DNA of 64,000 nucleotides from an uncultured bacterium (GCA_963704645.1 OY969926.1:928001-992000); one strand, 5' to 3'; counted from the first letter of the stretch, positions 9,772-16,158 are shown. A program made the numbers and translations. The notes: generated by a model from the sequence alone, not told the origin.

Positions 9772-11559
9772 TTACCCGCCAACTTTCTTTTTATCAACTT
9801 CTGTAACTTTCATAGAAATTGCTGTTCCTTGGAAGTTAAACTGCTTTCTAACTACATTTTCTAGAAATCTAACGTAAGACCAATGAACTGTGGTTTTGTC
9901 TTTAATTAGAAGCTCGAAGGTTGGTGGTTTAGATTTGGAATATATTAAATCGTAAATAACGGCACGTTTTTTGTTAGCCACCTTGTTTGGCGGTTTTTTC
10001 TTCATTAAATAGTTGAACAGCTTTCTTAATTCGGCTTTATCAATTTGTTTTTCACGGTTAGCCAAAGATTCATCAATTTTTTCCCATATTTTATACAAAT
10101 TGGTCTTATTTATAGCCGAAACCCAAACGAAATCGTCTAGTTTTAAGAACACGAATTTATGCAAAAATGCTTTAATGAAGGCTTGCTTTTGCTCTTCATC
10201 AATTAAATCTGATTTGTTAGCAATAACTACCATCCCCTTTTTAGCTTGTTTACAAATTCCTGCCACAACCTGATCTTGATGAGAAATTGGTACAGAAGCA
10301 TCTACCACCAAACAAATTACGTCTGCCTGGTAAGCACTTTCCACGGTTCTAAAAGTGGCAAAAGTTTCAGCTCCAGTAGTCCGCTGCCCTGGCTTTCTAA
10401 TTCCAGTTGAATCTAGCAAAATGTATTCTTTATCAATCCATTCATATTCTGGTTTTGACTCTGCCTTTTGTGGAACTTTTTCTGAAATTTCTTTTTTAGC
10501 TAAAACTTTTTTAGGAAGATTAACTTCGCTTAGCTCTTCATCATCATCAGAATAAACTTCTTCGACCACTTCCTCATTATCTTCATATAATTCAGCTGCT
10601 TCATTAATTTCAGCAATATCTTCCAACATTTCTTCCGCTTCGAAACTGTCTAAATCTAATTCATCTAAATTAGCAGCTTCTTCTACTTTCTTTAAAACCT
10701 TAACTTTTCTGGTAAGTAATGTGTCGTTTACGCTTAAAGTTGTTCCTGGAATATCTGTAACAATTTGAATTTCACTTCCAATCATAGCATTGAACAAAGA
10801 GCTTTTTCCAACATTTGGTTTACCCAACAACAAAATTTTTGGCTTTTGTGGTTCTTTGTCTTGCTCATCAGCGCTATCTGGATCTATTCCTTCATCTTCC
10901 AAGACTACTTCGTACAAACCAGGACCGTCTTCGTTGTTTTCTCTGGTAACATAATAAGATCCATCATTCAGCATTTTTACAATGCCGGCTTTTTCACGCT
11001 TTTTCTTTTTGTGATCTAAAATTTTAAATGGTTCTTCCGGGCTTTTTTCGTAACCCATGGCCAAACATTTTTCCACCAAAGCATCAAGCAAATCGTTAAT
11101 TCCATAACTGTTGGTAGCACTAACGTTTACAAAAGCAAAGCCACCTAATCTGGCGTAATCGGCCACACTTTTTTCTAAATTAGGGTCGTCTACTTTGTTA
11201 ACTGCTACCATGAACGGCTTTCCCACTTTCCACAGTTTTTGTAACAATTTCTGAGGAATATTTTCCGGGTTCTGCCTTCTATCTATTACCCAAACCAAAA
11301 TGTCGGCTTCGGCTAAAGCCCCAAAAGATTTTATCTGAATTTCTTTCTGAATTTTATCTTCAGGGTCTGGAACTAAACCACCTGTGTCCACAAATTGCAT
11401 GTACATGTTGTCCCACTCGGTTTCTGACCAGTTTAAATCTCGGGTTGTATGCTCTTCTTTAGCTGTAATGGCTTTCTTGGTTCCACAAACACGGTTTAAC
11501 AAAGTACTTTTACCAGAATTTGGTAGCCCAAAAAAGGCTATAGTTGGTATTGCTTTCAT
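9772..11559 (-). CDS. der: Ribosome biogenesis GTPase Der/EngA with large acidic insertion
   Basis: Two G domains (GLPNSGKST/DTGG/NKVD and GKPNVGKSS/DSTG/NKSD) plus KH-like C-terminus (PPTF...SYVRFLEN). Start moved to ATG 11559 because the track's TTG start is the TTGACA -35 box. Confidence 0.93.
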   Translation of the reverse strand: MKAIPTIAFFGLPNSGKSTLLNRVCGTKKAITAKEEHTTRDLNWSETEWDNMYMQFVDTGGLVPDPEDKIQKEIQIKSFGALAEADILVWVIDRRQNPENIPQKLLQKLWKVGKPFMVAVNKVDDPNLEKSVADYARLGGFAFVNVSATNSYGINDLLDALVEKCLAMGYEKSPEEPFKILDHKKKKREKAGIVKMLNDGSYYVTRENNEDGPGLYEVVLEDEGIDPDSADEQDKEPQKPKILLLGKPNVGKSSLFNAMIGSEIQIVTDIPGTTLSVNDTLLTRKVKVLKKVEEAANLDELDLDSFEAEEMLEDIAEINEAAELYEDNEEVVEEVYSDDDEELSEVNLPKKVLAKKEISEKVPQKAESKPEYEWIDKEYILLDSTGIRKPGQRTTGAETFATFRTVESAYQADVICLVVDASVPISHQDQVVAGICKQAKKGMVVIANKSDLIDEEQKQAFIKAFLHKFVFLKLDDFVWVSAINKTNLYKIWEKIDESLANREKQIDKAELRKLFNYLMKKKPPNKVANKKRAVIYDLIYSKSKPPTFELLIKDKTTVHWSYVRFLENVVRKQFNFQGTAISMKVTEVDKKKVGG

Positions 11560-11674
11560 GTTTACAATCAAATCTGTATGTTTAGGCTTTGTCAAAACAA
11601 CTTACTTAAACAACAATCTTGCCAGTTTTCCCCCAACAAAAAAGAGTAATGGCATAACCAAAACTCTTCTAAGT

Positions 11675-12103
11675 TTATGTGGAGGTTTTTTTCTGAAAAA
11701 AGGGCAATGCAAAATATACAAACATTCCGAACAAATTTACTCCAAAAACTGGAATTCCAAAGCTCCAATTTTGTCCAAGGAAGTAACCAATGTTGCATGC
11801 TATTATATATAGCATTGGGTAAGAAAAATAGGGATGTTCGTTACCATCGTTTATAAACACAATCGCCAATACAGCTAGAGCAATTAGTATTGCTATGTGC
11901 ATAACATTTAAATACCAACCATTTCTACCAAGGAAGTTCATGGTTAGAAAGAACAGTCCATTTGAGAGGCAATAACTTACAAGATAAATTCCAAAGTTAT
12001 CGGAAAATTTTTCATCATACAAAGCACGTACCGTAAGAAAACAACAGACAATCTGTGAAATAAACAAGCATAAAGCTGCAACCATTGCCAAATCTTCAAG
12101 CAT
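11675..12103 (-). CDS. Hypothetical multi-TM protein (ORFan cassette)
   Basis: 142 aa, hydrophobic; TTGACT at 12167-12162; downstream hairpin AAGAGT...ACTCTT plus T tract. Confidence 0.6.
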   Translation of the reverse strand: MLEDLAMVAALCLFISQIVCCFLTVRALYDEKFSDNFGIYLVSYCLSNGLFFLTMNFLGRNGWYLNVMHIAILIALAVLAIVFINDGNEHPYFSYPMLYIIACNIGYFLGQNWSFGIPVFGVNLFGMFVYFALPFFQKKTST

Positions 12104-12250
12104 AATTTAATTTTGCCAATAATACTAACTACCATTTATAAATAGCACATAAATCACCAAAAGTCAAAGTTTGAAAGGTTTAGATTTAACTTGACAAATA
12201 GCTATTTTTACGGCTATTAAAAGTAAGTTGTTGTTGTTTTAATCAAATTT

Positions 12251-12682
12251 ATGGGTGGGAATTTTGATTTAGCTATTTTTTTTAAATTAGACAAACTTCC
12301 ATGTGATTTAATTGCGACTCTGGAATTGAATAGGATTAAAATTTATTTACCAGTTACTTGTGTTGCTCATCAAGCTAATCCCTTGTGTTTCATGGTGATA
12401 TCTGTAAATGAAAGAATTATCTTAGAAATTGGTCACTATTTAAAATTTTTAGGCTTTGATGTCTTCACAACTTATGTTTATGACGATGATCTGCAGGTTA
12501 AGATGTCCGTAGTTCAAGGATCATACATTTACAGCTCATCATACAATATGTTGGATATTGTATCTGATTTATACTGTAAAGAAACAATGGAGGAAATATT
12601 TAAATTTCTTTCTATTGGAACTTCTAACAATGAAATGAGTCATTTTGTAGACTTTGTTCATAAATGGATGGCCTTAGAATAA
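12251..12682 (+). CDS. Hypothetical protein (ORFan cassette)
   Basis: 143 aa; TTGACA at 12191; terminator CCGTCT-TTTT-AGACGG followed by a T-rich tract. Confidence 0.6.
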   Translation: MGGNFDLAIFFKLDKLPCDLIATLELNRIKIYLPVTCVAHQANPLCFMVISVNERIILEIGHYLKFLGFDVFTTYVYDDDLQVKMSVVQGSYIYSSSYNMLDIVSDLYCKETMEEIFKFLSIGTSNNEMSHFVDFVHKWMALE

Positions 12683-12822
12683 CCACAAACCCGTCTTTTT
12701 AGACGGACTTTCTTTTGTGAAAAATTAGGAGAATTGAGTTAACGTAAAACCTCTTCCCAAAATTTGACATTACAAGCCCTAACCACCAAGTTTAGTTGTT
12801 TAAAAAATTCAAACAGCACAAT

Positions 12823-14070
12823 ATGAAACAAAAGCTTGCTTTCACAGTTACAGGAATAATTATAATTGCCGCTTCTGCCATTCTGCTTATTAATAGTTAC
12901 GGAAATTTTAAGGATCAAACAAAGCAGGAAAATAATAATGCGTTAAAAGCAAACAGTGTTTTGGATACACCATCAACCAAAAACGAAGACTCAACATCAA
13001 CCCAAATTCCTAATAAGGCTGAGGTAAAAACCAAAATAGAATTAGTGGCCAAAAACTTGTTTGTGCCCTGGGCTATTACTTTTACAAGTCAAGATAGAAT
13101 GTTGTTTACAGAAAGAAACGGTAAAATTAGGGAAATTAAAAATAGCGTTTTAAACCCAAACCCGCTAAAAGTTTTTCAGAATATTTCTGCTTTGTCTGAA
13201 GAGGGTTTAATGGGAATTACAATAGACCCAAATTACCAAGAAAACAAGTTTATTTATACTGTTTATGCCTACCCTAAAGATAATGCTTACGCAGTTAAAG
13301 TTGTTCGTTTAAAAGATAATGAAACCAGCTTAGACGATGAAAAAGTTATTTTAGATAATATTCCAGGTTCAAGGTATCATGTTGGAGGAAGGCTAAAATT
13401 TGGTCCAGATAAAAAGCTGTATTTAACAACAGGCGAAAACACTAACCCCGAAACTACTCAAGATAAAAACACTTTAGCAGGTAAAATTTTAAGAATGAAC
13501 TCAGACGGAAGCGTTCCCGAAGATAACCCATTTCCTAATTCATTAATATATTCTTTTGGTCACCGAAACCCACAAGGCATAGATTGGCACCCAGTTTCTG
13601 GACTAATGGTTGAAACAGAACACGGTCCTTCTGGTTATGACGGCAGGCGTGGCGGAGACGAGGTAAATATTATTCAAAAGGGTAAAAACTATGGCTGGCC
13701 AACAATTTCTTACGAACAAAAACAAGACGGCTTATTAAGTCCAAATATTGTGTATTTCGACTCCATCGCTCCTGGTTCAGGCTCTTTTTATAATAGTTCA
13801 GCTATTCCTCAGTTTCAAAATAATTATTTTATTGGAGCTTTAAGAGGTGAAGCAATTTACCAAGTATTTTTTGACGAAGCTGGCCAGAAAATTTTAAAAA
13901 ACGAAAAACTAGAAGGAATTAACTTTGGTAGAATAAGAGAAGTAATTATCGGCCCAGACGGAGCTTTGTACTTTAGCACCAGCAATAAGGACGGCAATGG
14001 TAAGCCTGGAAGTGAGGATGATAGGATATATAGAATAATTGCGGACAATATCAAAGTGGAGAACCGATAG
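12823..14070 (+). CDS. PQQ-dependent sugar dehydrogenase (GSDH/YliI-like), N-terminally anchored
   Basis: VPWAITF, EEGLMGI, HVGGRLKFGPD, AGKILR, GHRNPQG, NYGWP, GRIR. Confidence 0.92.
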   Translation: MKQKLAFTVTGIIIIAASAILLINSYGNFKDQTKQENNNALKANSVLDTPSTKNEDSTSTQIPNKAEVKTKIELVAKNLFVPWAITFTSQDRMLFTERNGKIREIKNSVLNPNPLKVFQNISALSEEGLMGITIDPNYQENKFIYTVYAYPKDNAYAVKVVRLKDNETSLDDEKVILDNIPGSRYHVGGRLKFGPDKKLYLTTGENTNPETTQDKNTLAGKILRMNSDGSVPEDNPFPNSLIYSFGHRNPQGIDWHPVSGLMVETEHGPSGYDGRRGGDEVNIIQKGKNYGWPTISYEQKQDGLLSPNIVYFDSIAPGSGSFYNSSAIPQFQNNYFIGALRGEAIYQVFFDEAGQKILKNEKLEGINFGRIREVIIGPDGALYFSTSNKDGNGKPGSEDDRIYRIIADNIKVENR

Positions 14071-14256
14071 TATTTTACTGGCTTAAATAGAAGACCTATG
14101 AATGTTGAAAAATAGGCATTCATTAGTTTAGACCCTGATACAAGGGTGACAGCCTCGATTGCTGAGCTTTGTAGTGTAATATTCTTAGTATTGTGTTTCG
14201 TATGCTATCTCCCTCATTTGCCTAAAACAAATTAAAAATAGAAGATTAAAATAAAT

Positions 14257-15477
14257 ATGTTAAAGGCTTTAATTTTTGACTCTTACTTTGATAAACACAG
14301 GGGCGTAATTGCTTTTATTAGGCTATTTAATGGAACACTAAAGCCAGGAGATACAATTTATTTTTTACAAACCAGTACCAAGGTAAATGTATTGGAAGTT
14401 GGAATTTTCAAGCCAGATTTACAACCAATAGACGTTTTAAGTAGTGGTGAAGTTGGTTATGTGGTAACCGGTTTAAAAGAGCTGGAAAAAGTAAAAGTTG
14501 GTGACACCATAACCCACACAGATAACTTAAGCTTGGCATTACACGGTTATAAAGAAGTTGAGCCAAAGGTTTATTCTAGTATTTTTCCTACAGATGCTTC
14601 AGACTATCCTAAATTACGCGAAGCAATTGCTAAATTAAAACTAAGTGACGCTTCTTTGCAATATCAAACTGAAAACATTCCAGCCCTTGGCTTTGGCTTT
14701 AGATGTGGCTTTCTAGGCCTTTTACACATGGATATTGTACAAGAAAGACTTAGTCGGGAATTTGATTTGGATCTTGTTTTAACCACTCCGTCTGTTCAAT
14801 ACCAAATAGAGGAATTTAACGGAGAAACTTATACAATACACACACCTTCCTTGCTTCCAGACCCAAGTAAAATTAAAAATATTTACGAACCGTGGATTAA
14901 AATTGAAATTATTACCCCAGATATTTACATTGGTAAAATTATTGAATTAATTACTGGTAAACGTGGCAGTTACAGCTCTATTTCGCCATTAGCCCAAGAT
15001 CAAGTACAAATTACTGGCGAATTACCCCTGGCAGAAATGATTGTAGATTTTTACGATGAATTGAAATCATCCACCAAAGGTTTTGCCACTATGTCTTACG
15101 AAATTATTGGCTTTAAGGAAGGCGATTTAGTAAAAATTGATATTTTAGTAAACAAGAAAGTTGTTGATCCACTTTCGGTAATGACTCACCGTGCACAATC
15201 TGAAGAAAAAGGTAGAGAAATTTGTGAGAAATTAAAAGAGCTTATTCCTAGGCAGCAATTCGATATTGCCATTCAAGCTTCAATTGGAGCCAGAGTTATT
15301 GCCAGAGAAAGCATTAAACCATTCAGGAAAGATGTTACGGCCAAGCTGTACGGAGGTGACCCTAGTCGAAGAATGAAGCTTTTGGATAAACAAAAAGCAG
15401 GAAAAAAGAAGATGAAAATGGTAGGAAACGTAGAAATTCCTCAGTCTGCCTTCTTAAATGTTTTGAAAAAGAGTTAG
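14257..15477 (+). CDS. lepA: Elongation factor 4 (LepA), domains II to CTD only; G domain absent
   Basis: Begins LKALIFDSYFD (start of domain II); GFRCGFLGLLHMDIVQERL; RKDVTAKLYGGD...KQKAGKKKMK. In-frame stops lie directly upstream. Confidence 0.92.
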   Translation: MLKALIFDSYFDKHRGVIAFIRLFNGTLKPGDTIYFLQTSTKVNVLEVGIFKPDLQPIDVLSSGEVGYVVTGLKELEKVKVGDTITHTDNLSLALHGYKEVEPKVYSSIFPTDASDYPKLREAIAKLKLSDASLQYQTENIPALGFGFRCGFLGLLHMDIVQERLSREFDLDLVLTTPSVQYQIEEFNGETYTIHTPSLLPDPSKIKNIYEPWIKIEIITPDIYIGKIIELITGKRGSYSSISPLAQDQVQITGELPLAEMIVDFYDELKSSTKGFATMSYEIIGFKEGDLVKIDILVNKKVVDPLSVMTHRAQSEEKGREICEKLKELIPRQQFDIAIQASIGARVIARESIKPFRKDVTAKLYGGDPSRRMKLLDKQKAGKKKMKMVGNVEIPQSAFLNVLKKS

Positions 15478-15506: not shown

Positions 15507-15905
15507 TTAAAGAACTGAAACTAAAATTTCAGGCGGATAAAATTTATCAAAAGAGGCTATTTTATAATTAAAGTGTTTAGCTTGAACTAAGCAGGCAATA
15601 TCAAAAAAGGATTGATTTTTATTTAAACTCTGTTTATAAAGCCTTATAACTTCTTTTTCAAAAACTGTATCGAAATCAAATTGTTCAGTAAATAGTTGTT
15701 CAAATAACTCTATGGCTTGAACTGCAAAGCTTTGCTCTAATTTTCTAGACAGCACTGTCATAAGCTCATATTTGGTAAGATTAGAATAAATAAAGTCACA
15801 GTCTGAGTGATCTAGTGCTAATTTTCTAGCCTTGGCATGATTGGAATCTTCGGCAATTAGTAAAGCTATAAAAAAATCTGCATCGCACAAAATTTTCTTA
15901 ATCAT
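15507..15905 (-). CDS. PIN-domain (VapC-like) toxin
   Basis: ILCDADFF...DSNH...YELMT...SFFDIACL...IASFD. Confidence 0.85.
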   Translation of the reverse strand: MIKKILCDADFFIALLIAEDSNHAKARKLALDHSDCDFIYSNLTKYELMTVLSRKLEQSFAVQAIELFEQLFTEQFDFDTVFEKEVIRLYKQSLNKNQSFFDIACLVQAKHFNYKIASFDKFYPPEILVSVL

Positions 15906-16158
15906 AAATGTCGTTGTGGCTGCTAGATAAATTTAGAACTGTTTTCGAACCTGTTTGAATGGGCTTGAAGGTTTGTATTTTGTTTTTAAAAACTTGTTTT
16001 TGGTTAGTGATTTCTATTTTCTGATCTCCTAAAGAAATGAGTACTTCCCCATTGTTTTTTAAATCTAGTTTATCTAAAAATGCCTTAGGCAAGGTAATTT
16101 GACCTTTGCTGGATATTTTAACCTGTTTAGATTTTATTGCCAAAGATTTTGTGTTCAT
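15898..16158 (-). CDS. AbrB/MazE/SpoVT-type antitoxin
   Basis: KISSKGQITLPKAF; overlaps the PIN gene by 8 nt. Confidence 0.88.
   Translation of the reverse strand: MNTKSLAIKSKQVKISSKGQITLPKAFLDKLDLKNNGEVLISLGDQKIEITNQKQVFKNKIQTFKPIQTGSKTVLNLSSSHNDIYD

Follow-up and report, generated by a model that had tools for sequence, protein, structure and literature searches.

EF4 (LepA) is encoded in two separate pieces in the genome of an uncultured bacterium, one gene specifying the GTPase (G) domain and another, far from it on the chromosome, all the domains that follow, and the same division is common to the whole class to which this bacterium belongs. The reading favoured here, with reasonable though not full confidence, is that EF4 in these bacteria is a two-subunit factor assembled without a covalent link.

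A lepA gene that starts at domain II

The window, the whole stretch of 64,000 nts that was analysed, is G000:C1:928001-992000, G000 being a closed genome of 1,272,640 bases with a GC content of 33.4%. It contains the gene for the larger piece, here lepA-C, with the following features (positions counted from the first letter of the window):

14071-14256, no strand: intergenic spacer of 186 nts between a dehydrogenase gene and lepA-C, with no G-domain remnant and no Rfam match
14218-14223, plus strand: −35-like hexamer TTGCCT, 39 nts 5′ of the ATG, from comparison across the class
14239-14241, plus strand: in-frame TAG, five codons 5′ of the lepA-C ATG, by direct reading
14257-15477, plus strand: lepA-C (EF4 domains II, III and V and the LepA C-terminal domain), 406 aa, TIGR01393 match
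14260-14514, plus strand: domain II (beta barrel), aa 2-86 of lepA-C (PF22042, PF03144)
14560-14805, plus strand: domain III, about aa 102-183, limits approximate (EFG_III)
14881-15141, plus strand: domain V (EFG_C), aa 209-295 (PF00679, E 1e-20)
15148-15468, plus strand: LepA-specific C-terminal domain, aa 298-404 (PF06421 positions 1-107 of 107, 161 bits)
15475-15477, plus strand: TAG stop codon of lepA-C

The original prediction of a 406-aa ORF whose ATG lies exactly at the boundary of domain II is borne out. The product begins M-LKALIFDS, the lepA equivalog model TIGR01393 matches it over positions 190-594 of 595 (567.3 bits, the cut-off being 533.9), and neither a GTP_EFTU domain nor the EF-G domain IV family is found in it by Pfam search. 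Its start, however, had been placed at 14218, which is that of the promoter-like hexamer; the ORF starts at 14257. In alignment with PDB sequences lepA-C corresponds to E. coli EF4 residues 191 to 592 (3cb4). The Pfam match to EFG_III spans aa 102-139 and, at 25.9 bits, is below the cut-off; EF-G models of NCBIfam align with aa 3-183.

The in-frame stop expected just upstream is the TAG at 14239-14241. The stop-to-stop frame is 411 aa, and there is no further start codon between this TAG and the ATG. Likewise, the expected lack of any G-domain remnant 5′ of lepA-C is confirmed, a tblastn search of 12000-14400 giving noise only (best match 22.7 bits, E 0.019, falling within the upstream gene at 12796-14070, which is a member of the glucose/sorbosone dehydrogenase family). 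The remainder of the protein is well conserved, as had been proposed, with 59-84% identity to 18 orthologues in the class. A Der/EngA-type protein of 609 aa (9775-11601, minus strand) was considered as a donor of the G domain and rejected: it has two GTPase domains and a KH-like end, and is unrelated to LepA.

On the 3′ side of lepA-C is a VapBC-like pair on the minus strand, a PIN-domain protein (15507-15905) and a MazE/AbrB-type antitoxin (15898-16158) whose genes overlap by 8 bases. In the congener G001 the next gene follows directly after lepA-C, and the pair thus represents an indel that distinguishes G000 from G001.

A separate gene for the G domain

Searches of the closed genome with PF00009 and TIGR01393 led to a stand-alone ORF of 214 aa, here lepA-N, at G000:C1:1158083-1158724 on the minus strand. 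It is thus 215 kb from lepA-C and on the opposite strand. It matches TIGR01393 over positions 1-189 with 286 bits (against 117 bits to the TypA model) and PF00009 over positions 1-188 of 188, and contains the GTPase motifs AHIDHGKST, RGITI, DTPGH, NKID and SGKTG. Its C-terminus reads ...RIPSPKTIE and is followed by TAG. The best PDB matches are EF4 chains, with the alignment stopping at E. coli residue 184; since the match of lepA-C starts at residue 191, the two pieces meet at the linker that joins the G domain to domain II (the G|II linker), with about six residues missing.

By tblastn against the whole closed genome each piece is single-copy, no full-length lepA is present (an HMM search gave the same result), and no remnant of domains II to V lies beside lepA-N. 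A full-length lepA elsewhere, with the window gene as a decaying copy, had been raised as a possibility; what the search of the genome for a G domain returned instead was one intact, separate G-domain gene. The one feature of the EF4 family from which the sequence departs is the placing of all domains on a single polypeptide of about 600 aa; taken together the two pieces make up an EF4.

Elsewhere, the LepA of G110 is full-length, but its G domain is enlarged by about 150 aa inserted after QPVRM and before LNLIDTPGH. In the class the same loop has 0-35 extra residues, about 25 of them in G000 (alignment A1, columns about 70-110).

The split across the class

Comparison of 27 genomes of the class (2 families, 19 genera) found none with a frame spanning both lepA parts. 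The N piece is present in 26 of them, in 3 as two HMM stretches inside one frame of 215-224 aa. The C part is present in 25, as one piece in 20, cut by a contig end in G024, and as two further pieces in 4. The absences (the N piece in G013, 68% complete; the C part in G003 and G004, 84% and 79% complete) are uninformative either way, because the completeness of these genomes is 68-84%.

The position of the cut hardly varies. In the junction alignment the N pieces of the class end at IPxPK plus 0-6 variable residues. For the C pieces, an initiating Met directly precedes [LT][KQR]A[LM]IFDS in 18 of the 19 aligned, the exception, G025, having six extra residues; this alignment leaves aside G005 (whose frame lacks the first 22 residues and the start codon), G024 because of its contig end, and the four genomes with a three-piece LepA. 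The codons that end the N piece and start the C piece at the cut are conserved class-wide. Identity to the G000 pieces is 69-93% for N and 59-84% for C, and the G1-G5 motifs, DTPGH included, are invariant in all 26 N pieces. The dN/dS ratios between G000 and G001 (Nei-Gojobori) are 0.053 for the N piece, with a dS of 1.05, and 0.051 for the C piece, whose dS of 2.1 is near saturation. These values are rough, since even this closest pair approaches saturation and more distant pairs are saturated, but they indicate strong purifying selection on both pieces.

The two genes are unlinked. No lepA neighbourhood conserved beyond the genus was seen in the approximately 1 kb of flank available per relative, and the neighbouring genes differ in every genus examined. 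In G008 the two pieces do share one contig, of 104.8 kb, on which they are 75 kb apart. Database proteins of 117-375 aa also include LepA G domains of 184-222 aa that fall into well over 100 distinct clusters at 70-93% identity, several of the G-domain-only clusters coming from contigs longer than 100 kb.

G007, G010, G012 and G021 have a second cut in the C part, at the border of domains III and V. Here about 40 aa are added at the end of the middle piece and about 80-95 aa at the start of the last one; neither addition matches a Pfam family, and the two could be docking modules. In G010 both pieces are encoded on one strand, the last piece immediately 5′ of the middle one.

The split outside the class and its origin

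Outside the class nearly all the genomes sampled keep lepA as a single full-length frame. In a phylum sample of 251 genomes with completeness of at least 80%, 14 of them in the class, the best 150 matches outside the class are single lepA frames of 562-765 aa covering about positions 2-594 (these matches include the unpublished G169, on which no claim rests). A lepA match at E 1e-60 is missing from five phylum genomes, three of which are of one family and 100% complete. Re-examination was of the 17 genomes with two matches or weak scores, those with matches of E 1e-187 to 1e-209 not being inspected individually. Nine of the 17 proved to have full-length single frames with insertions and five to have contig-end fragments. 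G145, from another class, has the same split, with an N frame of 208 aa and a C frame of 434 aa on different contigs. G075, also of another class, has a 406-aa C piece starting MLKALIFDS and, elsewhere, a G-domain fragment cut by a contig end. In G170 there are two adjacent lepA frames with the break within domain II. The proposed check for the same split in relatives thus finds it in all 27 class genomes and in G145 and G075 besides.

In a quick maximum likelihood tree of the region from domain II to the C-terminus, the 19 class C pieces form one clade (SH-aLRT 99), while G145 is placed beside a full-length form and G075 has a branch of great length, 2.5 changes per column. By the AU test a clade uniting every split form, G145 and G075 included, is not rejected (p 0.33). 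Branch lengths are 0.09-0.58 (median 0.19) for the split C pieces versus 0.19-1.97 for the full-length forms.

Promoter and transcript start

A promoter-like TTGCCT-18-AAGATT had been pointed out upstream of lepA-C. The sequence is present as described, TTGCCT at 14218-14223 being separated by 18 nts from AAGATT at 14242-14247, and its −35 box is backed by comparison across the class. The AAGATT half is weak, however, and the pair is not among the sites given by a consensus scan, which found 6 in the region compared with a shuffle mean of 6.3.

TTG[AC]C starting at −42 to −30 from the start codon is present in 16 of 19 class C pieces and in 12 of 26 N pieces. Among 818 long ORFs of G000 the same motif peaks sharply at −35 (60 ORFs) to −39 before the ATG, and about a fifth of the long ORFs have it at −42 to −30. 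With the −35 box at such spacing the transcript would start at, or adjoining, the ATG. It is therefore probable that lepA-C is transcribed from a promoter of its own into a leaderless or near-leaderless mRNA; the genome-wide peak suggests that mRNAs of this type are common in G000. For the N piece of G000 TTG[AC]C is found at −53 only. With the two genes unlinked, and the −35 spacing of the C piece not shared by the N piece of G000, there is no pointer to co-regulation.

Cuts in TypA/BipA

A second translational GTPase of G000 is also divided. TypA/BipA is encoded as 409 aa containing G, II and III (G000:C1:721266-722495, plus strand) and 211 aa containing V and the C-terminal domain (723179-723814, plus strand), with an unannotated ORF of 168 aa on the other strand between them. 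Of the 27 class genomes, 14 keep TypA full-length and 11 have it cut at G|II, at III|V or at both, contig ends intervening in the remaining two. The cut is after domain III in G000, G001, G002 and G019, and after the G domain in G014; there are three pieces in G012, G016, G022, G023, G024 and G041. The borders used (G|II and III|V) in this EF-G-family paralogue are those used in lepA. However, whereas the G|II cut of lepA is class-wide, the TypA fissions are patchy and so appear to be younger and repeated.

Genome-wide fission as an explanation was tried and rejected, since EF-G (723 aa), IF2 (644), RpoC (1332), DnaE (950) and SecA (947) are all single frames in G000. Fission is thus specific to two accessory EF-G paralogues.

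How the two pieces may work

In the proposed two-subunit EF4, lepA-C would supply domains II, III and V with the LepA C-terminal domain, and lepA-N the GTPase domain. The cut falls in the short G|II linker, at residues 185-190 of E. coli EF4. The two products would re-associate, in solution or on the ribosome, via the native interface of the G domain with II, III and V, and once re-associated may act as an ordinary ribosome-dependent GTPase. Non-covalent working is plausible because the G domain is coupled to the other domains via surfaces rather than via the linker. We infer, on the basis of the co-fold described below, that the halves complement each other in trans, much as the original prediction had it in one of its two readings. 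The other part of that reading, that EF4 is naturally split, is supported by an intact LepA-type G domain elsewhere in the genome, by the occurrence of the split in 27 of 27 class genomes and by purifying selection.

Examination of the cut ends by Pfam and junction alignment revealed no intein, Hint family, coiled coil, docking sequence, overlap or extra domain, and an Rfam search within about 1.5 kb either side of each piece revealed no intron or ribozyme family. (An AsrC match was rejected as an RNA element at the cut: it scores 27.7 bits against a gathering score of 111 and lies inside the G-domain coding sequence.) With no intein, coiled coil or overlap, and no intron or ribozyme nearby, the products are most simply two proteins.

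Co-folding of lepA-N with lepA-C, with the class alignments as input, gave an ipSAE of 0.75 (three runs, 0.74-0.76) compared with 0.00 for the best control, a result which may be model memory and shows likeness, not binding, since single-chain EF4 has been solved (3cb4, 4w2e, 5imq). The mark applied is reached by 58 of 80 solved complexes and by 2 of 110 mismatched pairs. At least 73% of contacts are common to the three runs, partner pLDDT is at least 76, and the predicted arrangement is as in solved EF4. Most predicted contacts of the G piece are with domain II (residues 3-8, 20-25, 50-53, 62-67, 81-82 and 95-101), the others being with domain III (152-157) and domain V (219, 266 and 277-281). 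Invariant residues are more frequent at the predicted interface than in the rest of the protein, 22 of 38 versus 108 of 368 for C and 22 of 35 versus 73 of 179 for N, an excess that is partly due to GTPase motifs conserved in any LepA. Both pieces are co-retained and under purifying selection; the native-like interface is a prediction.

Alternative explanations

A different possibility is that the pieces have diverged in function, with the C piece a GTP-independent ribosome-binding or assembly factor, and the G domain having another job or several partners, for instance the pieces of split TypA. Compatible with this are the unlinked positions of the lepA pieces with different neighbours in every genus examined, the lack of docking sequences added at the cut, and the free TypA G domain in six class genomes, by which partner swapping becomes conceivable. 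Yet the N piece is still a LepA-type G domain, as its scores against the two models (286 versus 117 bits) and its wholly invariant catalytic motifs attest, it is found in all but one of the class genomes, and on both pieces the predicted interface residues are more conserved than the rest. In EF-G-family factors, moreover, a lone G domain would be without the parts that position it on the ribosome, which also counts against divergence. This explanation is improbable, and a GTPase-independent factor, the second reading offered in the original prediction, is disfavoured because a matching G piece, its GTPase motifs invariant, is present in 26 of 27 genomes.

Alternatively the parts might be joined, by RNA trans-splicing or by a split intein, to yield a normal single-chain EF4. 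There are precedents for rejoining the products of split genes, in the split DnaE inteins and in organellar trans-splicing. The lepA pieces, however, have no intein fragments, N ending 0-6 residues past the G domain and C starting with the first domain II residue; the only domains that Pfam detects in them are EF domains, their flanks have no intron or ribozyme family, and the start and stop codons at the cut site are conserved across the class. The chance of such joining is very small.

That the split is an artefact or a product of decay (a misassembled junction, or a pseudogene fragment left by rearrangement) can be set aside almost entirely: the layout in G000, with C on the plus strand at 942 kb and N on the minus strand at 1158 kb, is what one inversion breaking inside lepA would give, but the same cut is present in 27 independently assembled genomes, which rules out misassembly, and both frames are intact, with dN/dS of about 0.05 and no full-length copy. 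Coverage of 14070-14260, the stretch singled out earlier as deserving a check, has weak support from a 301-base contig of a public DNA run that is identical to 14078-14378 with zero differences (depth 2-3; the run may be the source sample), but none of the five short contigs of that run bridges 14010-14077. A symmetric inversion about the origin or terminus was also considered and rejected: the extremes of cumulative GC skew are near 245 kb (minimum) and 895 kb (maximum), and the pieces are symmetric about neither.

Relation to known systems

The two-subunit EF4 favoured here has the domain set, GTPase motifs and LepA-specific C-terminal domain of canonical EF4 (E. coli 3cb4, Aquifex 2ywe, Thermus 4w2e/5imq). 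Where it differs is that all five distinct EF4 sequences with solved structures run as one chain of 545-679 residues, whereas here the G domain is separate and the six-residue linker is gone. Deletion of lepA in E. coli is reported to cause synthetic growth defects (PMC4245954). To our knowledge every translational GTPase studied so far is a single chain, its G domain covalently attached to the parts that position it on the ribosome; a split retained for as long as the class has existed would mean that such factors can do without this attachment. Natural cut sites already tried by evolution (G|II, together with III|V as seen in relatives and in TypA) would then be at hand for the engineering of EF-G-family factors, and the coupling of GTP hydrolysis to the other domains could be tested directly.

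A bolder proposal, possible but doubtful at present, is that EF4 of the class is an obligate heterodimer, and in some members a heterotrimer, which together with the repeatedly cut TypA/BipA would constitute the first known multi-subunit translational GTPases. If so, the GTPase module, as a free subunit, could be supplied under a control of its own, independent of the ribosome-binding body, and where the TypA G domain is also free the G subunit might perhaps be shared or exchanged between LepA and TypA bodies.

In Nanoarchaeum equitans and other reduced genomes, conserved multi-domain proteins are described as encoded in unlinked pieces thought to cooperate unjoined (PMC3491384). That case is archaeal and concerns other proteins, and fission in G000 is not general. 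We know of no translational GTPase among the fragmented proteins of N. equitans. 'Fractured genes' with split inteins, such as cyanobacterial dnaE, have their halves encoded far apart and on either strand (PMC2677866). Split-intein halves, however, carry intein fragments and are ligated to one chain, and the lepA pieces are without intein sequence. In the main texts of the open literature searched, no report of a split lepA or of a naturally split translational GTPase was found (PMC7750005, PMC12641178, PMC4342817, PMC5207388 and PMC6143161 among others). The texts covered include a review of EF-G, EF4 and BipA, as well as one that surveys translational GTPases throughout the tree of life.

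Genome-wide features

Use of TGA as a sense codon in G000 was considered and rejected, as TGA serves there as a rare stop, ending 43 of 880 long ORFs. Same-frame pairs of long ORFs in G000 are separated by TGA in 3 cases, by TAA in 35 and by TAG in 14; both lepA cut ends have TAG. The protein of one class member is labelled 'candidate division SR1 bacterium' at NCBI, and SR1 bacteria read TGA as Gly.

The lepA gene is used as a single-copy marker in bacterial phylogeny and in completeness sets, and a split gene therefore lowers or distorts such estimates. The completeness score of G000, though the genome is closed, is only 87%, and scores in the class are 64-93%; these low values may in part reflect the split lepA.
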